Shown here: positions 2,860 to 31,800 of the stretch, piece by piece | Numbering within the stretch: position 1 is the first letter of the stretch | How the letters are laid out: each line of letters opens with the position of its first letter | IMG/VR virus record: IMGVR_UViG_3300030328_001638 | Coordinates: 3,140 to 67,139 of that record | Reading direction: 5' to 3' (one strand) | Source of the DNA: a virus | Length of the DNA stretch: 64,000 nucleotides | Made by a program: the position numbers and the translations under genes | Notes under the pieces: generated by a model | The model's database searches: none | What the model was told of the DNA's origin: nothing | Seen by the model: only the letters and a program-made list of their open reading frames with translations

Positions 2860-3033
2860 TTAATTCTTCCTGTACGGAAACATTCGATTAAGACTGTCAC
2901 GTCTGTCATTACAGCCACATCCTCCGTTAGATATAGTGTCTGCTATTTTTTTTATTCCTGTTGCTTGAGTAAACTTTTCTATTGTGTCACCAAGTCCTTT
3001 TGAAGGAGTGGAATTTATTTTAGTTCTTTTCAT
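2860..3033 (-). CDS. Conserved small phage protein (SKGLGDT...CGC..R...LN..FPY type), 57 aa
   Basis: Read manually: MKRTKINSTPSKGLGDTIEKFTQATGIKKIADTISNGGCGCNDRRDSLNRMFPYRKN. Confidence 0.7.
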   Translation of the reverse strand: MKRTKINSTPSKGLGDTIEKFTQATGIKKIADTISNGGCGCNDRRDSLNRMFPYRKN

Positions 3034-3034
3034 T

Positions 3035-3172
3035 TTACTTACAAGTACACATCTTGTTTGGGCAATTTTTAACTGAAAATAATAGTTTAGATACTAACCA
3101 ATTCCAACTACATTGAAATCTGCACCACCATCCTTGTATTTTTAGCCCTAACTTTTCTAATAATTTTCCCAT
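3035..3172 (-). CDS. Small Cys/Trp-rich hypothetical protein, 45 aa
   Basis: Read manually (MGKLLEKLGLKIQGWWCRFQCSW...CPNKMCTCK); fills the operon gap exactly. Confidence 0.6.
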   Translation of the reverse strand: MGKLLEKLGLKIQGWWCRFQCSWNWLVSKLLFSVKNCPNKMCTCK

Positions 3173-3856: not shown

Positions 3857-3917
3857 AATATTATTTTTTTTATCTATTAATTAATATACAAATATATGAA
3901 TTTATTTTTTGGTTTTT

Positions 3918-4073
3918 TTAATACATTTTAGACCCCATAGTTTTTTCACTATGATATCCTGGATTGTTTTTTACTTTTCCTCCATTGCTTTTTGCGTAAG
4001 AATCTGCCTGAGCTTTCCCTACTGCATTATAAGGAAATTGTTTTTTCTTACCATTTACTATTACTGTAGGCAT
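3918..4073 (-). CDS. Small basic phage protein (MP.V...K.FPY type), 51 aa
   Basis: Read manually: MPTVIVNGKKKQFPYNAVGKAQADSYAKSNGGKVKNNPGYHSEKTMGSKMY. Confidence 0.65.
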   Translation of the reverse strand: MPTVIVNGKKKQFPYNAVGKAQADSYAKSNGGKVKNNPGYHSEKTMGSKMY

Positions 4074-7996: not shown

Positions 7997-8007
7997 AAAC
8001 AACAATT

Positions 8008-8508
8008 ATGAATACTAAAATGAACACTTTAATGACAAAAATTACGAATGGCGATATGGCAAGATTATCAATCATATTGCACAGACATATCGTTGTGAAT
8101 AATCCTCAAGATTGTACAGAGGGATTAGAAGAATTAAATTCTAAACTAAAACAGATGGTTGAGAGCAATACTCATTCTCACTACTCCCTTGATATTCAAG
8201 GTTGTTCTGATGCACACAAGTTGCACGAGGGACAAACCATATCATTGGGTTTAGGAGTGAATAGATTAGAGGAGTTAGAGAAGGAATTTGAAGAATGGAT
8301 GAATGAGAATGTTTATCAGAATGTGGATGGTAGTTTCTCAACACAAGATGCACAATGGAGAAATAGAATCCAAACAAAGAATGAGTTGAAAAAATACTTT
8401 CTACGAGAGTTTAGAGAGTTGGAAGAGATAAGCGATAGAGAGAAAAATTACAATCCTAATGAAAACTATATAAGGGGAGGATTTAATCCATTTAAAACTA
8501 AATTATAA
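8008..8508 (+). CDS. Early hypothetical protein
   Basis: ORF track; stop codon forms part of hammerhead 1 stem I. Confidence 0.7.
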   Translation: MNTKMNTLMTKITNGDMARLSIILHRHIVVNNPQDCTEGLEELNSKLKQMVESNTHSHYSLDIQGCSDAHKLHEGQTISLGLGVNRLEELEKEFEEWMNENVYQNVDGSFSTQDAQWRNRIQTKNELKKYFLREFRELEEISDREKNYNPNENYIRGGFNPFKTKL

Positions 8509-8565
8509 CTGATGAGGATTCAAAATCCGAAACAAGATGATTGTGAAATTCTCTTGTATTATAAT
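8502..8565 (+). ncRNA. Hammerhead ribozyme, type I (HH1)
   Basis: ATTATAA-CTGATGA-GGAT/ATCC-GAAA-CAAGA/TCTTG-TA-TTATAAT; predicted cleavage GUA after 8558. Confidence 0.88.
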
Positions 8566-8583
8566 AAAAATAAAACAATAATT

Positions 8584-8802
8584 ATGAAAACCGAACACTT
8601 AACTTATGAATGGGAAATCTCTCCTAACAATATTGTAGAGATTGACTATACCTACTCTCAAGAGAGTGGAGACTATCTACAACCACCTTACGAAGAAATT
8701 GAGATAGACAGAATGACTTTAAATGGAGATGATGTAACAGATAGATTACACGATACATTTGAGTATGAAATTATAGAAGAAATTACTAACCAAACACTTT
8801 AA
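8584..8802 (+). CDS. Acidic early hypothetical protein
   Basis: Start reassigned to 8584; the upstream extension is ribozyme sequence. Confidence 0.7.
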   Translation: MKTEHLTYEWEISPNNIVEIDYTYSQESGDYLQPPYEEIEIDRMTLNGDDVTDRLHDTFEYEIIEEITNQTL

Positions 8803-8805
8803 ATT

Positions 8806-9273
8806 ATGACAAAACAAGAATTTTTAAACAGGGCGAAAGCTATTAATGTAAAAGAATCACGAGGACACGATGCACCTTCTTATGAATGGGACATCAAATT
8901 TGACAATGTCAAAGTATGCAATTGTTGGGATGATTCTTATGGTGGAGAATTAGAAATAAATAATTATAGCCATCATTCTATTGAGAAGATTTATTCAACA
9001 ATAGACAAAGACTCTTTATGGGATGAAAAATACCAATGGACTACTACACTTGAGTTATTAATGTCTGAGTTGCTTGATAACCATTACCGAGACAAAGATG
9101 CTAAAAAAGGAGTAGTGTTCACTAATGGGAAAATTAGAGGATACAAACACACCATCCCAACATTAATAAAAAGAGGAGAAGGTTTCTTGATTCAGGACAT
9201 TATTGATTCTGTCAAGGATAAATCTACCATTGTAAATCACGAATATTTAACTAACCTAAAATTTAAAATATGA
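8806..9273 (+). CDS. Early hypothetical protein
   Basis: ORF track. Confidence 0.7.
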   Translation: MTKQEFLNRAKAINVKESRGHDAPSYEWDIKFDNVKVCNCWDDSYGGELEINNYSHHSIEKIYSTIDKDSLWDEKYQWTTTLELLMSELLDNHYRDKDAKKGVVFTNGKIRGYKHTIPTLIKRGEGFLIQDIIDSVKDKSTIVNHEYLTNLKFKI

Positions 9274-9503
9274 ATCCATTTAAAATAACACCGAGTAAAA
9301 TCTCAGATTCAGTACAGAAGAATATCTCAATTCAATTGGAGTTTGCTATCAATCAAATTGCAAGTGATTTGGATATAAATACTTTTGATGAGATTGATTT
9401 AGCATTGACTATTGTAAATGACATTGATGCCTTGAAAAAAACTATTGTTCACGAGATTATGAAGCAATGTCATCAAGAGTATAATAGGAGAAAAGGATTC
9501 TAA
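9270..9503 (+). CDS. Early hypothetical protein
   Basis: ORF track; ATGA overlap. Confidence 0.7.
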   Translation: MNPFKITPSKISDSVQKNISIQLEFAINQIASDLDINTFDEIDLALTIVNDIDALKKTIVHEIMKQCHQEYNRRKGF

Positions 9504-9519
9504 CAATCCCTTACTCAAC

Positions 9520-9559
9520 ACCTTGCCTTGCATAGAGATATGCGAGGTTTTGGTGGTAG
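9520..9559 (+). promoter_or_regulatory. Structured RNA motif copy 1 (9-bp GNRA hairpin + TTTTGGTGGTAG)
   Basis: ACC-ttg-CCTTGCATA-GAGA-TATGCGAGG-TTTT-GGTGGTAG. Confidence 0.65.
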
Positions 9560-9595
9560 TAGGCAATAGTGCCTTAACAATTAAATAACAAAACA

Positions 9596-10294
9596 ATGAA
9601 ACTATTAGAATTATTTAGTGGCTCTCGTTCAATCGGCAAAGTAGCTGAAGCAAGAGGACACGAGGTATTCTCGGTTGATAATGTAGCTTATCCAAAAACT
9701 AATTGGGTAGGAGACATTTTAGATTGGGACTACCGATTAAATGAAATGGAAGTAGGAGAATTAGATGAATTCTACATTCCTGATGTCATATGGGCATCTC
9801 CACCTTGCACCGACTTTTCGGTGGCTTGTATTGGTCGTAAATGGGTCAAAGGACACGAATTTATGCCGAAGGACAATCAGCTTTTAGGAATCAAGATCTT
9901 GGAAAAAACTTTAGAAATTATAAAATTTTACCTTGAGAAGAATCCTGAATTAATTTGGTACATAGAAAATCCAAGAGGTAAAATGCGTAAAGCACCTCAT
10001 TTCCAACATATTTATCATAAAAGAGAAACCATTACATATTGTCAATATGGGGACTCCAGAATGAAACCTACTGATATCTGGACCAATGATATTGGATGGA
10101 AACCAAAACCTATGTGTAAAAATGGGGACACTTGTCATACTCCTGCACCGAGAGGTTCACAGACAGGTACACAAGGACTTAAAGGTAATCACGAACGAAG
10201 CAAGATACCATCTGACTTATGTCAGGAGATTATAGAATCAGCAGAGTTTGAGGTTAACTTTAAGGAAAACATATTACTAACAAAAACTAAATAA
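9596..10294 (+). CDS. C5-cytosine DNA methyltransferase
   Basis: LELFSG (motif I), SPPC (IV), IENP (VI). Confidence 0.88.
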   Translation: MKLLELFSGSRSIGKVAEARGHEVFSVDNVAYPKTNWVGDILDWDYRLNEMEVGELDEFYIPDVIWASPPCTDFSVACIGRKWVKGHEFMPKDNQLLGIKILEKTLEIIKFYLEKNPELIWYIENPRGKMRKAPHFQHIYHKRETITYCQYGDSRMKPTDIWTNDIGWKPKPMCKNGDTCHTPAPRGSQTGTQGLKGNHERSKIPSDLCQEIIESAEFEVNFKENILLTKTK

Positions 10295-10296
10295 CT

Positions 10297-10497
10297 ATGA
10301 AAAAACCGAAATTTAGGTTGTGGTGGTTTACAGATTGCAATAAAAAAGATGAGAGATTGCATTCTAAAGACTTTAAAACTTTAATAGAAGCTAAACAATT
10401 TATCAAAGACAATCAAGATTGTGTGTTTGGTAAATCTATAAGAGATGTTGTAAATAAATCTTTTATCAAACCATCATTACTAACTAAAACTAAATAA
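10297..10497 (+). CDS. Early hypothetical protein
   Basis: ORF track. Confidence 0.65.
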   Translation: MKKPKFRLWWFTDCNKKDERLHSKDFKTLIEAKQFIKDNQDCVFGKSIRDVVNKSFIKPSLLTKTK

Positions 10498-10499
10498 CT

Positions 10500-10880
10500 A
10501 TGAAGAATACAATAAAAGATGTTCAACAAGCTGAATGCAATTTAGAGCCATTACATTGTCTCAATTGTGATAGTACAGAAGTTACATATCATCAATATAT
10601 AGGAGATGCATATTGTTCTGATTGTGGAGAGTGGCAAGAGGACATAAGCGATAGAGAGAGATTAAGAAAAGAAAACTTAATTGAAGCTATTGTAAGTTTA
10701 AATGATGAGGATAGCGTACATTTTTGCAATAAATGGGATTTAGCTCATTATGGCGAAGAAGTTAGTGCGACAGACCATTTATATAACTATGCAACAAATG
10801 TTGTAGAGGGAGAGTGCAAAACTCTTGAAGATATAAAGGAAATGGAAAACTATTTAAAGAAATATAAATCACTTAACTAA
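10500..10880 (+). CDS. Zinc-ribbon-containing early protein
   Basis: CxxC-x15-CxxC. Confidence 0.7.
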   Translation: MKNTIKDVQQAECNLEPLHCLNCDSTEVTYHQYIGDAYCSDCGEWQEDISDRERLRKENLIEAIVSLNDEDSVHFCNKWDLAHYGEEVSATDHLYNYATNVVEGECKTLEDIKEMENYLKKYKSLN

Positions 10881-10892
10881 AACTAAATAATT

Positions 10893-11012
10893 ATGAAAAT
10901 CAGAGAATTCATACAACATATTATCAACAATCCTTTTCAGGTATTTGCTGAAGTATGTTTTTTAATCATATTGTTTTTATGCTTACTATGTGTATTGCAT
11001 ATATTTCAATAG
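10893..11012 (+). CDS. Small membrane protein, 39 aa
   Basis: Read manually; preceded by the junction repeat; hydrophobic C-terminal half. Confidence 0.6.
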   Translation: MKIREFIQHIINNPFQVFAEVCFLIILFLCLLCVLHIFQ

Positions 11013-11033
11013 TGGAGTGGGGACTTTGTCCCC

Positions 11034-11082
11034 TCTGTCGTAAGGTGTGTGCCTTGCCTGATGAAGCGAAAGCAGAAACAGA
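11034..11082 (+). ncRNA. Hammerhead ribozyme, type III, short variant stem II (HH2)
   Basis: TCTG-TC-GTAAGGT/GCCTTGC-CTGATGA-A-GC-GAAA-GC-A-GAAA-CAGA; predicted cleavage GUC after 11039. Confidence 0.75.
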
Positions 11083-11107
11083 AATAAAAACTTAAAACTA
11101 AATAATT

Positions 11108-11605
11108 ATGGGACAATATTATATGCCGATAAACAAGACCAAAAAAGAGTATCTAAATCCTCATACTTTTGGCAATGGACTTAAACTAATGGAATTCACA
11201 AGTGATGGAAGAGGAGTGTTACAAGGACTATCTCTACTACTTGCTAATGGTAATGGTAGAGGGGGTGGAGACCATCCAAGTGGAGACAAGCTGATAGGAT
11301 CATGGAGTGGAGACAACATCACAATTGAAGGAGATTATGCTGACAATTCACTATGGGATGTTATAGCTAAAGATGAGGACAAGAAGAAACCACAATGGAA
11401 AGATGTAAGCATACCTACATACAGACTCTTACTGCAAAATACTTGGGTTGGTAGAGAGATGGAAGAAAGAATACTTAAAAGTGGTACACAATTTATGATG
11501 CAAGATGAGAAAAAGTTAATGGAAGAGTTATTTCCAAAAGCTTGTGTAGAAGGAGATTTGCGACAGAAATTTGACTTTGTAGAAAAAGGACAATCTGATG
11601 AGTAA
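11108..11605 (+). CDS. Conserved phage hypothetical protein (MGQYY...GLKLME...G.WAGD...GDY type)
   Basis: ORF track; bracketed by HH2 and HH3. Confidence 0.8.
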   Translation: MGQYYMPINKTKKEYLNPHTFGNGLKLMEFTSDGRGVLQGLSLLLANGNGRGGGDHPSGDKLIGSWSGDNITIEGDYADNSLWDVIAKDEDKKKPQWKDVSIPTYRLLLQNTWVGREMEERILKSGTQFMMQDEKKLMEELFPKACVEGDLRQKFDFVEKGQSDE

Positions 11606-11651
11606 AGGTTTAAACACCTACGAAACACCTCAATTTGAGGTGTAATTGTTT
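11588..11651 (+). ncRNA. Hammerhead ribozyme, type I (HH3)
   Basis: ACAAT-CTGATGA-GTA..GGT/ACC-TAC-GAAA-CACCTCA/TGAGGTG-TA-ATTGT; predicted cleavage GUA after 11644. Confidence 0.88.
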
Positions 11652-11668
11652 AATTTAAAAATAAAATT

Positions 11669-11872
11669 ATGAGTAATTTAAGCTATTGCAGATTTCAAAA
11701 TACTGCACGAGATTTAAGAGATTGCCTAAACGCAATTGAAGATGGTCAGATAGATGACTTATCATTTGAGGAATTCAAAGGAATACAACAAATTCTGCAG
11801 GATTGCGAAACCTTAATGTTTATGAAGGAAGAGATTGAAGATGAGATAGGAGTAGAGCCATCCAGAAACTAA
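11669..11872 (+). CDS. Conserved small phage protein (M.N.SYCRF.NT..DL.DC type)
   Basis: ORF track; recognisable N-terminal pattern. Confidence 0.75.
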   Translation: MSNLSYCRFQNTARDLRDCLNAIEDGQIDDLSFEEFKGIQQILQDCETLMFMKEEIEDEIGVEPSRN

Positions 11873-11894
11873 TAAATAACTAAAATAAATAACT

Positions 11895-12224
11895 ATGAAA
11901 AAAGATTTAAATTATGAATCAGTAGGAGAGTATTTTGAAGATGAGTTAGGTACTCTTATGGACAAGTATATAATGGAAACAAGTAAATATCAATATGTCA
12001 ATGAGGATGGGGAATTATTTTTTGAAGATAACGACAGGATGGATAGATATTATGAGACTGCGTTAGCTAACTTAATCTATCTGCTAAAAAAGACATATAA
12101 TTCTCCTAAACTTGCTTGTAAAACGACAGGTAAAGTTATAAATAATCCTGACTATGTTGAAGATAAAGAAAAAGAGGTTTTTCAAAATTTTGGACAAGGA
12201 TATTTATACAGGATCACAAACTAA
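11895..12224 (+). CDS. Early hypothetical protein
   Basis: ORF track. Confidence 0.65.
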   Translation: MKKDLNYESVGEYFEDELGTLMDKYIMETSKYQYVNEDGELFFEDNDRMDRYYETALANLIYLLKKTYNSPKLACKTTGKVINNPDYVEDKEKEVFQNFGQGYLYRITN

Positions 12225-12325
12225 ATATGCGAATTTATGTTTCGCATTAATATTTTAAGTTTGTACTATTATTAATTTAAATAGTAGAAATTTTCAATAA
12301 ATACATTACAAACAAAAAAATTGAT

Positions 12326-12586
12326 TTGCGAAAAATAGTAACAAATCAAGATGCAGAAATAGTTTTAGACATATTTCAAATTAGAGATTTCCTCACAGAA
12401 GTAGCTGAAGGAAATTATCAGATACATAATGAGTATGGAGAATATAATCATTATGCAAATAGCTATTGTATGGCTATGGTAGAAAAATTTGATTATCTAA
12501 ATGGATTAAATATTCCTCATTCAGAAAAAAGGAGTATAGAAAAATATTGTTTAAAATTACATTTGAAACATAAATTCGGTAAATAA
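12326..12586 (+). CDS. Hypothetical protein
   Basis: ORF track; TTG start; TAAGTTTG element at ~12256. Confidence 0.5.
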   Translation: MRKIVTNQDAEIVLDIFQIRDFLTEVAEGNYQIHNEYGEYNHYANSYCMAMVEKFDYLNGLNIPHSEKRSIEKYCLKLHLKHKFGK

Positions 12587-12592
12587 AACAAT

Positions 12593-12667
12593 TGCGAGGT
12601 AGAGCAGTCAGGTCAGCTCGTTGGGTTCATATCCCAAAGGTCGCAGGTTCAAATCCTGCCCTCGCAC
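12593..12667 (+). tRNA. tRNA-Met(CAT), initiator-like
   Basis: TGCGAGG/CCTCGCA acceptor stem, GAGC/GCTC D stem, TTGGG/CCCAA anticodon stem with CAT, GCAGG-TTCAAAT-CCTGC T arm; no encoded CCA. Confidence 0.92.
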
Positions 12668-12914
12668 CTAAAGGCAAAAAGTTTTTTATATTAATTAGCT
12701 ATGAAGTATACGAAGCTGATATGTGAGCCATAGGTTTAACTCATAGAAGTTGCAAATTCTTGTTAAACCTAAAATATTTATTAACCTAAACCTATATCAA
12801 TATGAGTAAGTACGAAGATAAAATCAAAGCATCTTTTTATTCCTTTCTGGTCATGATCCTAATATTAATTTATTTAATTATGAGTAATTATTAGGATTTA
12901 AGGATTTTTTTAAC

Positions 12915-12922
12915 TATATTTG
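12915..12922 (+). promoter_or_regulatory. Bacteroidota -7 promoter element
   Basis: TATATTTG. Confidence 0.6.
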
Positions 12923-12953
12923 CACAAGATGTAAACATTATATTGTTTTGTTG

Positions 12954-12994
12954 ACCTCTACCTCACTATGAAAATAGTGGGGTTTTGGTGGTAG
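12954..12994 (+). promoter_or_regulatory. Structured RNA motif copy 2 (9-bp GNRA hairpin + TTTTGGTGGTAG)
   Basis: ACC-tcta-CCTCACTAT-GAAA-ATAGTGGGG-TTTT-GGTGGTAG. Confidence 0.65.
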
Positions 12995-13029
12995 AAACGA
13001 AAATTTATTATTAACTTAAAATTAAAATT

Positions 13030-14183: not shown

Positions 14184-14196
14184 CAAATAAATAACT

Positions 14197-14421
14197 ATGA
14201 AAAATAAATTAACTCCTTTTCAAGAGGAACAAATGATTCACTTATGCAATAAACTTTTAGAGTATATGTATGAGCCTGAATATACTGATTTTAATGAACG
14301 ACATTTGTCAGATATAGTTGGTTTAAAAAATTTTAGCCAAGAGTATCAAGATGAACTAAACAAAAGCGACCATATATTTAAATACATATATGCGTTAGAA
14401 AAACTAATAAATCAATTATGA
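14197..14421 (+). CDS. Early hypothetical protein
   Basis: ORF track. Confidence 0.65.
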   Translation: MKNKLTPFQEEQMIHLCNKLLEYMYEPEYTDFNERHLSDIVGLKNFSQEYQDELNKSDHIFKYIYALEKLINQL

Positions 14422-18682: not shown

Positions 18683-21094
18683 ATGGAGATAACTATATTT
18701 AAAGACATTAAAAATACCTCTCAACCCTTCTATAGAGAGGTCGAAGTAGTATTAAAAAGGATACAAGAAGGAGCATCAAAAGATACTGTAAAAAGTATAC
18801 GACAAGAAAAAGACAAGTCAGAAAGAAACGTAATAAAGCAATCATTACCAGCTATATGTTTTTCTGGACAATTTACAAAAAGAAATGATTCCTCTTTAAG
18901 CGAACATTCAGGATTGATATGTTTGGATTTTGATGGGTATAATTCTACAAAGGATTTACTCCAAGAGAAAGAAAGATTATCTAAAGACAAGTATGTTTTT
19001 TCTACCTTCATAAGCCCAAGTGGACAAGGCCTGAAAGTGTTAGTAAAGATACCAAAGGAAGCAGAAAATCATAAGAATTATTTTTCTTCTTTAGAAAAAC
19101 ATTTTAATTCCCCATACTTTGATACTACATCTAAAAATATATCAAGAGTATGTTACGAATCTTATGATCCTCTAATTCATATCAATGTCAATTCAAGTCT
19201 TTGGGATACCATAATAGACCAAGAGTATACTGAGGTAACAAAAAATCAAGGGGTAGTGACTATTCCTGTAAGCGATGAAAATAAAATTGTAGAAATTTTA
19301 ATGAAATGGTGGGAATCAAAGTATGGTTTAAAGTCAGGAGAAAGAAACAATAATGTATATATTTTAGCATCTGCGTTTAATGACTTTGGTGTTAATCAAA
19401 ATTTAGCTGAATATGTAATGAGTCAATTTTCCTCTAAAGATTTTCCCTCTGCAGAAGTAAAGAGAACAATACAATCTGCTTATTCTAATAAACAAAATTT
19501 TGGTACTAAATTTTATGAGGATGAAGAGAAGGTAAATCAAATAAAGCAAAAATTAAGAAGTGGAGTAACAAAAAAAGAAATTAGATCTCAATTAGTAGAT
19601 GAAAATATTGAGGTCGGTATAATTGATAATGTCATCAACAAGTTAGAAGAGGAATCAGCTAATCATATTTTTTGGAGTAAAAATGAAAAAGGAGTAATTA
19701 AAATTGTACATATACTTTTTAAAAATTTCCTGGAAGAAAATGGGTTCTACAAGTTTAACCCTGAAGGAAGTAAATCTTATGTATTTGTCAAAGTAACCAA
19801 CAATTTAATTGACCATACCTCTGAAAAAGAAATTAAAGATTTCATTCTAAATTACCTCTTACAAGTAGAGGACTACACTATCTATAACTACTTTGCAGAA
19901 CACACACGATATTTTAGAGAAGAGTTTCTTACCCTACTATCTTCTATTAATGTATATTTTATAGAGGATACAAAGGATACAGCTTATTTATATTATAAAA
20001 ACTGCGCTGTTCAGTTGACTAAAGACCAAATTACTACAATAGATTATATAGATTTAGGTGGGTATGTATGGAAGGATCATGTAATAGACAGAACATTTAC
20101 TTTATGTGATGTAGGGGGTTGTGAATACAAAACCTTTATCTCAAATATTTGTGGTGCTGATGAGTCAAGAATCAAATCTATGGAAACCACCATAGGATAT
20201 TTATTGCATGGATGGAAAAATTTAGCTTATTGTCCCGCAGTTATTTTAAATGATGAAGTGATTACAGACAATCCAGAAGGTGGTACAGGAAAAGGACTTT
20301 TTATGAATGCATTAAGTCATATGAAAAAATTAGTTTTTATTGATGGAAAATCTTTTAATTTTGAAAGATCCTTCGCTTACCAAACAGTATCTGCTGATAC
20401 TCAAATTTTATGTTTTGATGATGTAAAGAAGTATTTTGATTTTGAAAGACTCTTTAGTGTTATTACAGAAGGATTAACTTTAGAGAAGAAAAACAAAGAT
20501 GCTATTAAGATTCCTTTTAGCAAGTCGCCTAAGATTGCTATAACTACCAACTATGCAATAAGTGGAGAAGGGACAAGTTTTGAAAGAAGGAAGTGGGAGT
20601 TAGAACTTGCTCAATACTATACCAAAGATTTTACACCCCTTGTAGAATTTGGAAGATTAATGTTTGGAGAATGGAATGATGATGAATGGTGTCAGTTTGA
20701 CAACTATATGATAAAGAACTTACAAAACTATTTAGGATCAGGATTATTAAAGAGTGAATTTGTTAATCTTAGAATTAGAAAACTTTCTGCTAAGACAGGG
20801 CATGATTTTATAGAATGGTGTGGGATAATTGGTACAACTCCATATCAAGATAAACTAAAGTATAATCAAAAGATATATAAAAATGATTTGTATATAGATT
20901 TTGTTGAAGAAAATCCTGACAGATCCATAAGAGGTAAGATGACTATTAGTAGGACCAGGTTTTATAAATGGTTAATATCTTATGGAATATTTCAATATGG
21001 AATTGCTCCAGATGAAGGAAGAGATAATTCAGGAAAATGGATAAAGTTTGTGAGTAAGCAATCTAAAGAAGTAAATGGAAGATTAGACTTATGA
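18683..21094 (+). CDS. Primase-helicase (VirE-N/BT4734-like primase, PriCT, P-loop helicase)
   Basis: SGLICLDFD, FISPSGQGLK, GERNN, Walker A GGTGKG, Walker B LCFDD. Confidence 0.88.
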   Translation: MEITIFKDIKNTSQPFYREVEVVLKRIQEGASKDTVKSIRQEKDKSERNVIKQSLPAICFSGQFTKRNDSSLSEHSGLICLDFDGYNSTKDLLQEKERLSKDKYVFSTFISPSGQGLKVLVKIPKEAENHKNYFSSLEKHFNSPYFDTTSKNISRVCYESYDPLIHINVNSSLWDTIIDQEYTEVTKNQGVVTIPVSDENKIVEILMKWWESKYGLKSGERNNNVYILASAFNDFGVNQNLAEYVMSQFSSKDFPSAEVKRTIQSAYSNKQNFGTKFYEDEEKVNQIKQKLRSGVTKKEIRSQLVDENIEVGIIDNVINKLEEESANHIFWSKNEKGVIKIVHILFKNFLEENGFYKFNPEGSKSYVFVKVTNNLIDHTSEKEIKDFILNYLLQVEDYTIYNYFAEHTRYFREEFLTLLSSINVYFIEDTKDTAYLYYKNCAVQLTKDQITTIDYIDLGGYVWKDHVIDRTFTLCDVGGCEYKTFISNICGADESRIKSMETTIGYLLHGWKNLAYCPAVILNDEVITDNPEGGTGKGLFMNALSHMKKLVFIDGKSFNFERSFAYQTVSADTQILCFDDVKKYFDFERLFSVITEGLTLEKKNKDAIKIPFSKSPKIAITTNYAISGEGTSFERRKWELELAQYYTKDFTPLVEFGRLMFGEWNDDEWCQFDNYMIKNLQNYLGSGLLKSEFVNLRIRKLSAKTGHDFIEWCGIIGTTPYQDKLKYNQKIYKNDLYIDFVEENPDRSIRGKMTISRTRFYKWLISYGIFQYGIAPDEGRDNSGKWIKFVSKQSKEVNGRLDL

Positions 21095-21714
21095 AAATTT
21101 TAATTGCTTGTGAGGAGTCTCAAACTATAACTAATCTATTTAGAGCTAAAGGATATGAAGCTTATTCTTGTGATCTGTTGGATTGTAGCGGGGGTAATCC
21201 TCAATACCATTACAAAGGAGATGCTTTAGTTTATGCTTATAGTGGTCAATTTGATATGATGATTGCTCATCCCCCTTGTACATTTTTAGCAGTTAGTGGA
21301 GCGAGATGGATGTATAATAAAGATGGGAGTGTTAATCAAGAACGCTTATTAAATCAAAGGAAAGCTTTAGAGTTTGTCAGGTTATTAATGAATGCACCGA
21401 TTGAAAAAATTGCTATAGAGAACCCTGTTAGCGTTATCTCCACTAAAATAAGAAAGCCTGATCAGATAGTACAACCTTATTGGTTTGGAGATGAAGCTCG
21501 TAAAACCACTTGTCTATGGTTAAAAAATTTACCCTTACTTAAGCCTACTAACATAGTAGGGAAGGGAGAGCAGGTAGTTTATAAAAGTGGAAAATCACAC
21601 CCTAAATGGTATGCTGAAGCTTTAACCAAAGCTAAAACTCCTGAAGAGAGGAGAAGATTAAGAAGTAAAACTTTTCCAGGAATGGCTAATGCAATAGTTG
21701 AGCAATGGGTATAG
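21091..21714 (+). CDS. C5-cytosine DNA methyltransferase (ACEES..HPPC type)
   Basis: LIACEESQ, AHPPCT, IENP, RSKTFPG.A.A...QW. Confidence 0.85.
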   Translation: MKILIACEESQTITNLFRAKGYEAYSCDLLDCSGGNPQYHYKGDALVYAYSGQFDMMIAHPPCTFLAVSGARWMYNKDGSVNQERLLNQRKALEFVRLLMNAPIEKIAIENPVSVISTKIRKPDQIVQPYWFGDEARKTTCLWLKNLPLLKPTNIVGKGEQVVYKSGKSHPKWYAEALTKAKTPEERRRLRSKTFPGMANAIVEQWV

Positions 21715-25872: not shown

Positions 25873-28800
25873 TTAATTATTATATCGTTGGTTTAAATAC
25901 TGCTGTCTACGCTGTTTCTCTAAATCTTTTAATCTTTGTCGCTCTCTATATTGCGGACTATTTCTTATAGCGTCTTGCTGTTGCTTGTATCTGAAATAAG
26001 CTTCAGGGTTATATCTTTTCATCTCCTCCACACTCAGCTTGTCTGCCTTTTTTTCTTTTGTTCTCTTAGCTTTTCTATCAGCGTCACTTTCCACGACATA
26101 CTCTGAATATTGTAATGCTAATAAAATAAATTCTTGTGGAGAAACATTTCCGTTTAATATTTTATCTGAATTTTTTATTAATCTATCTATCTGTCTGGTA
26201 GGTAACCCCAATGAGTTTAGTAAATCAAAAATAGCTTTTTTGTACAGCTCTTCTTTGGCTGCCTTACTTTTAGCTATAGCTTCAGGTTTACGAGGCTTTC
26301 CATTTTTATCAAATGGTGTTACATTATATTTGTCCGCTTTTTGCAATTCTTTGAAAAATTTAGCAGACACTTCTAATATAGGAATACCCCCCGAGGTTTC
26401 TCCTGTCCAAGGTTTTCCTGTCCACTTATCTCCGTAATAAGTAACTATTTCACCGAGTATAAACATTGCATTTAAATTGCCTAATACTCCTGCTCTCATT
26501 AGGTCTAAGTTATCTTCCTCATCCCATGGGGCTAATATTCCTGGTAAACCTGCGGCAACATATTGAAAGGCTATTGGTAATAAAGAATGGTAAACCATTA
26601 ATCTTCTTGCATTTTCCTTATATGTTCCTTTTCCTTCTTTACTTCCTGACATTGCTTTTCTATATATATTTATCGCAGCCATTAATTCTTGTCTAAAATA
26701 CTGTTTGATAGAAGTTTGAAACATATTTAAACCTCTTGCGTACCATGCGCCTGTTTGAAACTCATCTCTGTCTTGTAGGTCACTTGACTGCTGAGTCATC
26801 TTTGTGTCTCTTTCAAAAAGTCTTACCGCATGCTCGATAGCCTCTTGTTCGGTGGCTTGAGGATTGGCAGCTTTAAATTTATTTTTATAGTGAATATAGT
26901 TAGGTACTCCCCCTATTACTATTGCCCCTTTATCTCCTTGTTTTACCAACCACATCATGACATCTATAAATCTACCTTTCGCTCCTGCAGGAATAACACT
27001 TTTTACATTGCTTTCAGAATAAGACTCTAAAGTTCTTAATATACTCTCCCCATATCTATCTTGGATGTATACAGAATTATTTGATATTTCTTTCCATATC
27101 TTTGAGTATTGAGTAGCATTCATTGCCGCAAGTTTAGACCAATTTCTAAACCCAATAAATGCAGCGTATGCGGGAGCGGATGTTAACTGCTTGATAAATA
27201 TAGTAGGATTAATAGATAATTTACCTATGACAAAAGCAGTAGTTATGTTGTTTACCCATTCCATAGATTTCTCATTACTAACACCTCTATTACCTAATTT
27301 TGTTATCATATTCATAATGCTCTCGTACGGAGTTTTACCAAAATTAAATACAATTTGAGATTTAATATCTTTGTTCTTAAATAATTTACTCATATCATTT
27401 ATCACTTCACCCATTGAAGCAAAATAATTCATATCATTAACATAGGATATTAAAGTAGACATTTGATCCATATCGGCTATAGCCAGAGCATTATTCATCC
27501 TTACTTTTGTGGAAGCAGGAGCGGCAAAGTTTTTAAAAGCATTAGTTCCTGAAGACATTAACTGCATTATATCAGTTTCAGGATTTCTTCCTTCTCTATA
27601 TATTCTCCCTGCGTAATATTGATTCCAAGGCATTGAAGTTCGGTATATCTTTTTATAAGCCTCATTATACCCCTCATATAGTGATGGGAAAAATTCTTCC
27701 ACCTGCCAACGAGATAACTCTTTAACCTCATCGTTTAGCTTAGCTTCCATTTCCGCCATTATTCTTTTATAACCCTTCCCATATTTAGTTTCAAAAGATA
27801 ATTCATTGGCAGGGTCTTTATATTGTGCTACTAAATAAGCCATTTGATTTTGGCTTAACGGAGGCAGTTCTACTCCTGAATCAGTAAATATTCCTGTCGG
27901 CTGTATACTACTATCGTTTTGTGCTTTTGTTTGCCAATTTTTTCCATATACTTCTTCCAGCTTATTATTTATAGCTAAAGTGGTCATCATTTTTCGAGCT
28001 TTATATTCTCGTGTACCTTCGTTTACTTTAACAGAAGTAATTTTTTGTGTTTCATTTCCTAATATATCACCAGGCATTTTTCCAATAACACCCATCCATG
28101 TGGCTAAATCGGAGTTCATATATATAAAATTTCGTGTCGCTATTCCTAAATTCCTAAATGCCTGTACAGCTCTATTTCGTACCTTATTTTTTCTGGCTTC
28201 AGATATTAACCTTGTATCACGCAATAAAACCTCCACTTCTGGATTTTTAATTAGTCGTGGGTTTGCATTTGATTCAGGGAGAAGTTCATTAAAATCAGGG
28301 TTTTCTATATAAGACTTAACTCGCAATCCTGTAATATCATAATACAAAGTTTCAAATTCAGCCACATACTGTAAGTGTTTATCGAATAATTCTTTTTGCA
28401 ATTGAGTTTTCCCTGTCTCAACTAAAGAATTAAGATTATTCAACACATCGTCTAATGCTTCAGTTTTAGAAGTCTCTACATCTTGAGATAATTGAGCATT
28501 TAAAAAATCAATTACAATATTCAAATCAGCTATACTATTTCTATCTTTAGGTGTTAAGTCTGTTTGACTTTCTAATTTAGCTATTTCATCTAAAATTGCC
28601 TGCACTTTATCGTCTATTTGAGTGGTATCATTGAAATTAATTTCATTAATCATTGCTTTGATACCTTTAAGCCTTTTATGAACCTCATGACTTACCTTAT
28701 AGCCTTTTGGTCTACCTGCCTGTATATCTTCATACTTTCCATTAAGAATCTCTTCAATCTTGTTTGTTAAAGCTTGATTTGTTTTCTTATTAACAAACTC

Positions 28801-31800
28801 TACAACCTCAGCTTTTTTATTTTCTATATTTTCTAAATTCGCATTAGTTATACTTCTAATAAGCTTTACAACTTCAGGTCGAGAAAATACATAGTTAGGT
28901 AAAGCTTGTCTTATAAAGTTTCTTAAATCTCGCTTTACTTCATCTAATTCTTTTCTTCCTTTTACTCTTTGTGTTAATATTTGTTTAGCTCTTTTAATTC
29001 TTCCTCCAACATCTTGCAATACTGTACCTGAAAAGGCAGTTTTCATTTGCGCTATCATTTGAGCTTGTTGAGTACTGAATCCATTTTCAAAAGTTTCACC
29101 CTGATATTCAGGAGTACTTTCTAAAAACTCGACTGTCATTTCATCTATTTGACCTTGAGTATATTTATAAAGCTTTTTACCATCCTTCTGAGCTTTATCT
29201 TGAAGAGTATTAATTTGTTTTTGAATCTTTTTAATTTCATTATTTATCTTCTCAACTCTTTTTTTGTTTTTAAAAATTGTAGGTTGATCTAAATCTATTT
29301 TAAGCTTGTCTATTTTACTTAATAGGTTAGTTATTTTTTTACCCACAGGGGTAAGATTATTATTCATTAACTTATTTCTATAAGCCACAACCTTATCAAA
29401 TAGCTTTAAACCATTCATCATACCTCCTGCAATATTTCCAAAAGCCTTTGGTACATTCTCTAAAGTATATCCGCTTATTTTCATAAGAGGATTTATCTCA
29501 CTCATCTTATATTTTAATCCTTTTAAATAAGTAATAATCGTATTTTCTTTTATATTATTCATACGTCCTAATCTCACGATATCAATAATATTTTTAGACT
29601 CTCGTCCAATTTCATTAATAGATTTTTGTTTACGTACCGTTTTAAACGGATTAAAAAATCTACCATTTCTTTTAAAATAATGCCCTACTAATTCTCCACT
29701 TCTATACCCTTCTCTTATGTAAGCAGCATGTACTGTTAAACCTAATTCTGCTGCCGCTCTTTTTAAGTTTTGAATATTATAAATATTAGCGGGCATAAAT
29801 CCTTTAAAATTCATGTTGTAGTTACTTCCTAAATTTTGTGCGCTTTTTTGTTTACGCACACTAATAGTTCCTACTTTAGGTATTGCTCCTGCAGAACTCG
29901 ATACATTACTTTGTTTAAACTTCGTATCTCCTACTAACTTTTTAACTGATGTAGCAGGGGTTGATCCTTTATTAAATTTAGTGTAAGAATTAGTTACCTC
30001 AGTAGACTGATAAAATTCAGTTGGCTGATAAATACCTTCAATTTTTGCTTTTATCGTCCAACCAAAAGACGGGTGATAATCCACATCCCCTGGCTTAGGT
30101 TGTGAAATAACCATACTCTCAGGAACAAATTCTGTTATACCTATTAAATCAAATGCTTGACTATTTTTATTAGCAGGGTCTTCTAAACGGCCTGCAAATT
30201 CATTTTTGTTTTTTACACCTATTGCTTCTTGATATGCTTTGTTTGCTGATAGTTTATCATTTAATGCTTTTCTTAAATTAGGTGAAAAATTGTTTTCTAT
30301 ATTTAATCCTTCAACTATTTCTTTAATAGTTAAATCATTAAAACTTTTTATATCATTTCTCCCTGATTTCTTTTTGTATTGCTCAAAAGCTTTTTTCCCT
30401 ACCTCATTAGTCAATACTTCATTAAATACATTTTTCATTTCTTGTTCGGTCAAAATCTTGTTGTCTAAAGCTACATTTACCAAGCCTTCAAATATAGCTT
30501 GTTGAAATTGCCAAGAGTTTTGATCCGTCCCTCTATGAGGTATAAATAAATTAGCATCTCCTTGTAAGACATTACGAATAAAAGTGGCAGCCTGACTTTC
30601 AGTATTGAACGCAGCTAAATTAGATATATCCCCTAAATTTTTCCCTGCTCTTTCCATCATATCAGCTACATAGTTTTTTCCTCCATACAGCGTCATGCTT
30701 AGACCATTACCTAATTCAGTAAGTCCTGACATAGTAAAGTCATACATATTAGTAACAAAATTTCTTCCTGCAAAATCAGCTAAAGATTTATCTTTTATAT
30801 GTTTTGCAAAAGGTCTTTGGTCATTAGATATAGGAGGGGCTTTTCTTCCTTTTTGTTTTCTTTGTTGATTAATATTTATATCCGTACCAACTTGACCTCC
30901 TGTCCCTTGTTCTTGTTTTTGATTAAATTTAGTTTTCATATCCAAAGCTGCTATATCTGATTCAGTTATAGTCTCTCCTGTTTGAATTTTACCTGCTAAT
31001 CTATTGAGTAAATTAATTACATCTTGAGAAGATTGACCCACCTCTATACCTAATTTTTCTGCAATAGCCTCTATCCATTTTCTTATTTTACTTTTAGTAG
31101 GAGCATCAAACTGAGTATAGTTATCTGCTATCATTCCAAATATTTCTGCAAGTCTTTCTTCATTCTGTATTTCACTATCGTAATTTTTAATAAATTTCCT
31201 TAACTCCCCTCTTACTTCCTTTGGTATACTTCTACTTCTTACTAAAGCTTGAACCATACGTTTTGTAACTGCTTGAGCTAATTTGTCATTAAATTTTAAT
31301 TTATTAATTAATACTGCATGAAATATTTCATGACCTACGGTTCTTCCTGTAGCGTTTGCAAGATTAATATGAATAGTGTTGTCCAGTCTTTGATAAAATG
31401 CATTATCATTATCTTTATCTAATTTAGTATAAGAGTCCTCATCTCGATGTACTACTATTTTTAAACTTGGAAATATTTTAGCTACAGCTCGAGCTGCCAT
31501 TTTAGCTTGCTCTACAATACTTTGCTTGCCTTTAACTCTATTGTTAGGAGATGATGTAAAAGATAAGTTTTCACTTACTTCATTTACTTCTATATCGCTT
31601 TCTTTATTTTCGACATTAAATACTTTCTTTTTAGAAGTAGGGTTAGAGTCTATATCTTGATCTGATTTAGATTCAGGGTCTACCATAGCTTCAAAGTCAG
31701 ATAGCTCTTGACTATCTACTTCCTCTTCGGTCTGTACCCTGTCTTGACTCTCTGTTTCGGCTTCGTTCTGGTTTCCGATGTCACCTTCTCTGGTAGGATC

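Follow-up and report, generated by a model that had tools for sequence, protein, structure and literature searches.

We describe here three predicted hammerhead ribozymes, HH1, HH2 and HH3, and the gene bracketed by two of them, in a 64,000-nucleotide stretch of viral DNA (hereafter, the window), which represents bases 3140–67139 of the 67,139-base IMG/VR virus record IMGVR_UViG_3300030328_001638. The window carries genes for portal, large terminase, crAss muzzle domain, BT4734-type primase and GroEL/GroES proteins, and we read the virus as a marine crAss-like phage. Approximately 45 mostly small genes form a rightward block that extends from about 7.6 to 25.6 kb; the three hammerheads are located in its first quarter, all on the + strand, which is that of the genes, and within a span of no more than 3.2 kb. 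The features central to this analysis are as follows:

8502..8565, + strand: HH1, predicted type I hammerhead, cut after A8558 (descriptor, shuffles, minimum free energy (MFE) fold)
11034..11082, + strand: HH2, predicted type III hammerhead, cut after C11039 (descriptor, independent model, covariation)
11108..11605, + strand: open reading frame (ORF) of 165 amino acids, 'MGQYY' family (ORF call, homolog search)
11588..11651, + strand: HH3, predicted type I hammerhead, cut after A11644 (descriptor, covariation, MFE fold)
11040..11644, + strand: product of double cleavage, 605 nucleotides (nt), with predicted 5'-OH and 2',3'-cyclic phosphate ends (from the cut sites)

HH2 and HH3 bracket a single gene. 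The initial annotation had proposed that their cleavage would release positions 11040–11644 with leader, ORF and stop codon all inside, and these coordinates proved exact. The 605-nt piece comprises a 68-nt 5' part (the body of HH2 and an A-rich leader), the whole ORF and a 39-nt tail; it opens with the HH2 body and closes with stems II and III of HH3. In HH2, stem III is formed by a 5' strand at 11034–11038 and a 3' strand at 11078–11082, residue C17 is at 11039 with the cut between 11039 and 11040, the stem I hairpin occupies 11040–11057, the core CUGAUGA 11058–11064 and the GAA 11075–11077; stem II (11065–11074) has two G-C pairs, a GAAA loop and an A.A mismatch at 10.1/11.1. In HH3, the strands of stem I are at 11588–11594 (5') and 11645–11651 (3'), residue A17 is at 11644, and between them lie the core (11595–11601), stem II (11602–11621, with four further pairs beyond a 2-nt bulge), the GAA (11622–11624) and the stem III hairpin (11625–11643). 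The HH3 cut is 39 nt past the stop of the ORF and 25 nt before the next ATG. The last codons (GQSDE and stop) are themselves part of this ribozyme, as had been noticed initially: G-Q form the stem I strand, S-D-E the core, and the TAA falls in stem II. At HH1, the stop codon of the ORF 8008–8508 lies within stem I and the next ATG, at 8584, is 26 nt past the cut. A longer ORF call from 8512 would start inside the HH1 core, and the gene most likely starts at 8584, not at 8512. Counted by the descriptor used below, stems I, II and III have 7, 5 and 6 pairs in HH1, 7, 2 and 5 in HH2, and 7, 3 and 8 in HH3.

The consensus of hammerhead ribozymes, Rfam clan CL00010, consists of C3-U4-G5-A6-N7-G8-A9, G12-A13-A14, an A15.1-U16.1 pair and a residue other than G at position 17. 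All 11 core letters and the A15.1-U16.1-H17 site were found in HH1, HH2 and HH3, with A, C and A, respectively, as residue 17. The plain core pattern matched 18 times in the window versus 5.3 matches expected, and most of these are not ribozymes. The full descriptor, which combines the core with three helices and was controlled by 200 dinucleotide-preserving shuffles, identified exactly three sites with 14–18 stem pairs, on the + strand only, versus a mean of 0.02 and a maximum of one site in the shuffles. Unconstrained MFE folding of each of the three elements returned the three-way hammerhead junction. Canonical cores in the virus's own genome are those of the three hammerheads only. When the descriptor was relaxed to admit U3-A8 cores, long loops and a single mismatch in each stem, 16 further weak matches appeared in the whole genome, which were regarded as noise because all are long-looped and those compared with ORF lists fall inside ORFs.

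Comparison with related sequences, made for the HH3 lineage and the type III family, revealed covariation in all three helices. In the HH3 lineage (five sequences), 98.1% of the cells were paired and 7 of 21 pairs had changed on both sides; in the type III family (six sequences), the respective values were 94.3% and 9 of 15. With both alignments, none of 500 shuffles was as good and slid controls reached at most 46% paired. The covariance model R1, based on four type III hammerheads that come from three other phages, was built with the window and a near-identical copy of HH2 from a related locus (L016) excluded. It matched 11034–11082 with 53.1 bits (E = 5.4e-12), the runner-up in the 64 kb scoring 11.5 bits. 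A general type I model is absent, since the variable type I stems fell out of register in the MAFFT alignment; HH1 and HH3 are supported by the descriptor, shuffles and folding, with covariation for the HH3 lineage. On this evidence from sequence, both bracketing ribozymes look real, as hammerhead motifs with predicted self-cleavage, in agreement with the initial annotation.

Ribozymes were also found to flank MGQYY homologs in other phages, a check that the initial annotation had proposed. The loci analysed (L-numbered here) are IMG/VR loci around MGQYY homologs, 74 in number and 372,049 bases in total, in which all 34 hammerheads detected by the descriptor lie on the strand of the genes; one of these matches, in L017, is an artefact that overlaps a genuine type I site. 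The matches were confined to closer relatives (L009–L017, L021, L022, L025, L028 and L046), and none of the 34 was near the distant MGQYY homologs among the 74 loci. After merging of near-duplicates, 10 distinct phage loci remained, including the window; they are mutually related, and the counts given here are without phylogenetic correction. A hammerhead cut is located 27–72 nt before the MGQYY ATG in 7 of the 10, and 39–53 nt past the MGQYY stop in 5 (window, L010, L012, L021 and L022). The upstream hammerheads, of types I and III, fall into no fewer than three lineages unrelated in sequence: the window and L016 have type III, L009, L012 and L025 share a single lineage of type I, and L022 and L017 carry different forms of type I. 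The window, the L012 group and L022 have a hammerhead on either side of the gene; L010 and L021 have the downstream ribozyme alone. L015 has no hammerhead at either MGQYY junction and carries a tRNA-Arg(tct) at 3004–3078, 21 nt past the stop. Of the 110 gene junctions in the distinct loci, approximately 22 are occupied, and those on the two sides of the MGQYY gene are therefore favoured. In the full records of five relatives (26–64 kb), the canonical-core pattern recovered only known hammerheads, at most about 2.6 kb from the MGQYY gene, apart from an extra match at G001:49108, which is a pattern match only.

Gene order near the MGQYY gene varies among the relatives, and L016 has two type III copies and an additional ORF in the place of the single copy of the window. 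A tRNA of the same kind as that of L015 is present in L012 at 1227–1299. The L012 hammerheads on the two sides of the gene, at 2414–2477 and 2960–3017 (found also in L009, L011 and L014), have a common stem I and stem III base and a different stem II, and the latter has the same stem II as a third hammerhead, at 3872–3953; this sharing points to modular exchange between hammerhead copies. The type I hammerheads at L017 2376–2480 and L022 2424–2474, just upstream of the MGQYY gene, have U.U at 10.1/11.1, and one of them has an insertion of approximately 60 nt in stem III.

Four further features of the + strand bear on the position of the ribozymes relative to the genes:

11019..11033, + strand: G+C-rich hairpin directly adjoining HH2 on its 5' side (MFE fold)
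11083..11107, + strand: A-rich leader directly before the ATG, with a motif common to neighbouring genes (motif search)
11669..11872, + strand: downstream gene of 67 amino acids (phrog_8760), whose message would start at the HH3 cut
12593..12668, + strand: tRNA-Met, a likely further processing point of the same transcript

Placement was assessed with 28 distinct hammerheads, 22 of type I and 6 of type III. Type I cuts lie 21–33 nt before the next ATG in 19 of 21 cases and type III cuts 66–85 nt before it in all 6, and the distance from the 3' edge of the ribozyme to the ATG is 15–27 nt in 24 of 27. The spacing is tight, so each hammerhead appears to be positioned relative to its downstream gene. 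HH3 would then be the maker of the 5' end of the 67-amino-acid gene at 11669 as much as of the 3' end of the MGQYY message, and the exact bracketing is the outcome of two neighbouring junctions both being occupied.

The leader itself recurs along the block: a 13-nt A-rich motif abuts the ATG of four consecutive genes (starts at 10297, 10500, 10893 and 11108), at 10284–10299, 10487–10502, 10880–10895 and 11095–11110, and with mismatches at 11882–11897 and 14184–14199, in total six matches at no more than two mismatches, where 0.73 would be expected. The motif probably serves these genes as a common translation-initiation leader, in a host without Shine-Dalgarno sequence.

HH2 belongs to a dispersed family. 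A scan of IMG/VR for HH2-type ribozymes yielded at least 100 stretches (82 unique), which precede many different genes; stem I has at least four pairs in 78 of the 82, and the cut lies a median of 71 nt before the ATG (n = 75). A stable hairpin of variable sequence abuts the 5' side in 43 of 80 family members versus 5 of 80 control segments, and all six type III hammerheads of the close set have it, with stems that covary; it was seen at 11019–11033 in the window and in L015, L016 and L025. Cleavage would leave it as a hairpin at the 3' end of the upstream fragment, which would otherwise keep just five nucleotides of the ribozyme.

We consider it probable that HH1, HH2 and HH3 are active and cut a long rightward early transcript into pieces, with the MGQYY gene released as a one-gene mRNA. 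Every junction would comprise, in this order, a stop codon, a ribozyme, an A-rich leader of 15–27 nt and the next ATG, and the predicted pieces run up to 8558, from 8559 to 11039 (seven small genes), from 11040 to 11644 (MGQYY alone) and from 11645 onwards. The MGQYY message would have a 5'-OH followed by the folded HH2 body at its head and would terminate 39 nt past the stop codon with a 2',3'-cyclic phosphate, preceded by two hairpins of the ribozyme; in bacterial RNA decay, such ends should slow both 5'-monophosphate-dependent and 3'-exonucleolytic degradation. The purpose may be to uncouple the stability and translation of the MGQYY mRNA from those of its neighbours, and to provide every downstream gene with a defined, context-independent 5' end. 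The tRNA-Met at 12593 would serve as an additional processing point. Motifs, covariation, conservation and placement are all observed here, and the kept cores, the strand bias, the fixed spacing to the ATG and the reuse of the same junctions by unrelated hammerheads and a tRNA argue for selection on RNA function. Clustered hammerheads of prophages were shown to cut both in vitro and in E. coli, and in 2011 single-gene mRNAs were suggested as their products, as described in the available text of PMC3088659. The role of such elements was still considered undefined in the accessible part of a 2019 review (PMC6765202), and our literature search found no proof of function for phage hammerheads.

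Several observations weigh against ribozyme punctuation of the early transcript. No Rfam hammerhead was found in the window at the gathering score, nor at E <= 10 in searches of 5 kb and of 721 bases, and RF00163 and RF00008 had no match over the whole genome. Relatives' hammerheads scored 21.9–28.4 bits with the Rfam models, the cut-offs being 34 and 48.5; because clear relatives also fall below the cut-offs, the models appear too narrow for this group, and we take the silence of Rfam as a limit of models, given that these hammerheads carry long stems II or III. The stem I strand, the core and part of stem II of HH3 lie inside the ORF, and ribosomes would compete with their folding; in addition, stem III of HH3 with its tail fits a terminator-like pattern. 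A scan for sigma-70-type promoters was at chance level (53 versus 48.1 expected from shuffles) and therefore leaves the transcription unit undefined. Transcription as one RNA, cleavage in vivo and an effect on expression are steps that we infer from the sequence; among the sequencing runs listed for 10400–12300, none was of RNA. The weak point of HH2 is its stem II: a Watson-Crick pair at 10.1/11.1, usually G-C, closes stem II in HH1 and HH3 and not in HH2, which, given also its two-pair stem II, may be slow or inactive.

The last point leads to a rival explanation, in which HH2 is inactive or very slow and MGQYY is the last cistron of a 3.1-kb, eight-gene fragment spanning 8559–11644. Slow core variants of phage hammerheads are documented, and a two-pair stem II is described as common among hammerheads, in the available text of PMC3088659. 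The remaining core of HH2 is intact, and the element has been kept in L016 with 48 of 49 nt identical, the sole change converting a G.U pair into A-U, despite MGQYY proteins that are only 61% identical; furthermore, the same A-GC-loop-GC-A form of stem II recurs in 10 of the 82 unique HH2-type copies with three different loops. We thus regard an inactive HH2 as rather unlikely. A somewhat less unlikely explanation, which we nevertheless doubt, is that the hammerheads are primarily selfish: repeats dispersed between genes, and hot spots of recombination, whose copies spread among phage genomes and rearrange the genes lying between them, with cleavage tolerated and not selected for expression. 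The many HH2-type copies ahead of different genes are in favour of it, as are metagenomic data: in four runs, seven contigs with unrelated flanks, among those listed, match the HH2 unit only (11033/35–11082/89), and the depth peaks at 80.7 over HH2 versus 5.7 beside it. The apparently modular build of the elements (L012c has stems I and III as in L012b and stem II as in L012d) and the variable gene order around the MGQYY gene, with the additional ORF and type III copy of L016, can be read in the same way. Against this stand the cores, helices and loop letters kept under covariation, the strict co-orientation with genes (34 to 0), the tightly fixed distance to the next ATG and the occupation of the same junctions by unrelated hammerhead lineages and a tRNA. 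Recombination at hammerhead repeats may shuffle genes, which is compatible with a processing role and does not exclude it. That the elements are ordinary intergenic hairpins or terminators matching the consensus by chance could draw on the terminator-like stem III of HH3 and the lack of an Rfam match; it is hardly credible in view of three strong descriptor sites where 0.02 were expected, of the full core letters and A15.1-U16.1-H17 site in each element, and of the covariation in all three helices together with E = 5e-12 for a model made independently of the window.

The initial annotation had put forward a monocistronic, possibly circular mRNA. The first part stood, as one complete cistron with leader, ORF and stop codon would be excised; circularisation found no support. 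For the ends of the 605-nt piece to be joined into an exonuclease-resistant message, by host RtcB or by hammerhead ligation, the 5'-OH and 2',3'-cyclic phosphate would be the right end chemistry for RtcB. The first 9 nt of the piece pair with the 3' strand of HH3 stem II in both MFE and centroid structures, with the ends near each other; this pairing stems from look-alike local hairpins (HH2 stem I and HH3 stem II), and the predicted fold of the 605 nt does not stand out from those of shuffled sequences (z = -1.0), 5 of 20 of which fold equally well. The flanking hammerheads of the L012 type have a common 5-pair stem I, and the freed 5' end could dock downstream, but 7 of the 12 nt common to them belong to the general leader motif. 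HH2 is of type III and HH3 of type I, with no common stem or strand, so that joining the ends would restore no hammerhead. Among the 76 of 78 window ORFs of at least 50 amino acids that were scanned, none matched an RtcB or RNA-ligase family. Hammerhead-mediated circles of 83–103 nt have been obtained in E. coli at 6.7–9.5%, as cited in the available text of PMC11592204; Perreault et al. sought products of similar arrangements that were circular or spliced, without detecting any, according to the available text of PMC3088659. Joining of the ends is thus very unlikely in our view, and a protein-coding circular MGQYY RNA, closed by reverse cleavage or host RtcB, a shade more so; if true, this would be the first case of a natural circular mRNA in a DNA phage. 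The suggestion of a ribozyme-bounded mobile gene cassette found no support either, as gene and ribozymes do not travel as a unit and what is dispersed is the ribozyme of approximately 50 nt.

Structured elements that split a transcript into defined mRNAs are known from the RNase III sites of T7 early RNA and from tRNA punctuation in mitochondria. The layout described here is similar in that intercistronic elements would provide stable end structures, and in L015 a tRNA stands in the place of a hammerhead. It differs in that T7 and mitochondrial processing relies on RNases of the host or organelle, whereas the cut predicted here is made by the RNA itself and would leave 5'-OH and cyclic phosphate ends. 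RiboJ is a synthetic insulator with a type III hammerhead ahead of a ribosome-binding site. In common with it, the type III hammerheads in question lie at a fixed short distance upstream of a start codon and would make the leader context-independent after the cut; in RiboJ, however, the accessory hairpin is downstream, whereas in the natural elements it is 5' and would stay on the upstream fragment.

The closest precedent is that of the clustered prophage hammerheads, for which the available text of PMC3088659 describes several intergenic hammerheads, co-oriented with the genes, that bracket one gene or a short block, together with a proposed role in cutting a long transcript into mRNAs of single-gene or operon length. 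The genes flanked there are not constant according to that paper, whereas here one family is flanked repeatedly by unrelated lineages. Other differences from the same account are the host genome (an uncultured marine crAss-like phage), the mixed pair of type III and type I, and the use of one ribozyme core as the last codons of a gene with the stop codon held in stem II; the prophage hammerheads were bench-tested, whereas those of the window are known from sequence alone. Retrozymes and viroid-like circles, in the accessible parts of PMC4918200 and PMC7229834, are alike in that two hammerheads in direct orientation free a unit-length RNA with ligatable ends. They carry copies of one motif, their circle rebuilds the hammerhead, they are non-coding, and circles were observed (PMC4918200, PMC7229834, same parts). 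In the window, by contrast, the two ribozymes differ in type and sequence, and the unit would be a DNA-phage mRNA that is 82% ORF and folds at z = -1.0.

The bracketing of single genes by hammerheads in phages is thus already published, and the window adds detail and no new principle. The additions are a marine crAss-like group, a mixed ribozyme pair, a core that doubles as coding sequence, an accessory 5' hairpin, a blind spot of Rfam, and one gene whose borders are repeatedly occupied by unrelated hammerheads and a tRNA. We found no paper on hammerheads in crAss-like phages; the supplementary figures of PMC3088659, which were not covered, may hold similar maps. The purpose of bacterial and phage hammerheads is still open, according to the available part of PMC6765202, and the crAss-like group offers an unusually clean case: repeated bracketing, a fixed distance to the ATG and a core used as last codons argue for selected punctuation of transcripts and not for an accident. 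In practical terms, an entire set of hammerheads from marine phages escapes the Rfam models.

The protein encoded by the bracketed gene belongs to a family with 1364 homologs at E <= 0.001. An N-terminal MGQY and a glycine-rich loop are invariant in the alignment; of the 120 best homologs, 106 start with MGQY, and a C-terminal SWIM zinc finger is present in 4 of 22 homologs. The C-terminal QS[DE]E, the footprint of an HH3-type core used as coding sequence, was found in 18 of the 120 best homologs; the overlap of core and gene would therefore be old within a subclade. The 165-amino-acid protein has no Pfam, PHROG or NCBIfam family match, no match below E = 0.47 among sequences of solved structures, and no tblastn match in 50,697 phage records. 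Its AlphaFold2 (AF2) model is confident, with a predicted local distance difference test (pLDDT) score of 81.1 and a predicted template modelling (pTM) score of 0.77; Foldseek found nothing in the PDB at E <= 0.001, the top VIA Z of 4.5 involved C-terminal helices only, and structure matches in BFVD and ESM Atlas were unnamed family members only.

As to the genomic neighbourhood, a blastn search with window positions 8000–13000, in which cultured relatives were sought, returned the tRNA as the sole match. A 7-pair hairpin at 12227–12247, following the ORF 11895–12224, is terminator-like on both strands and could be the end of the RNA beginning at the HH3 cut. On the - strand, an ORF of approximately 2,888 amino acids (25873–34539) without Pfam or PHROG match adjoins the crAss-type structural genes; we take it, as a candidate only, to be possibly a virion-packaged RNA polymerase such as those of crAss-like phages. 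The same early block contains paralogous DNA methyltransferase genes (phrog_757) at 9596–10294 and 21091–21714, the first copy of which is upstream of the MGQYY gene in the window and downstream of it in L021 and L022.

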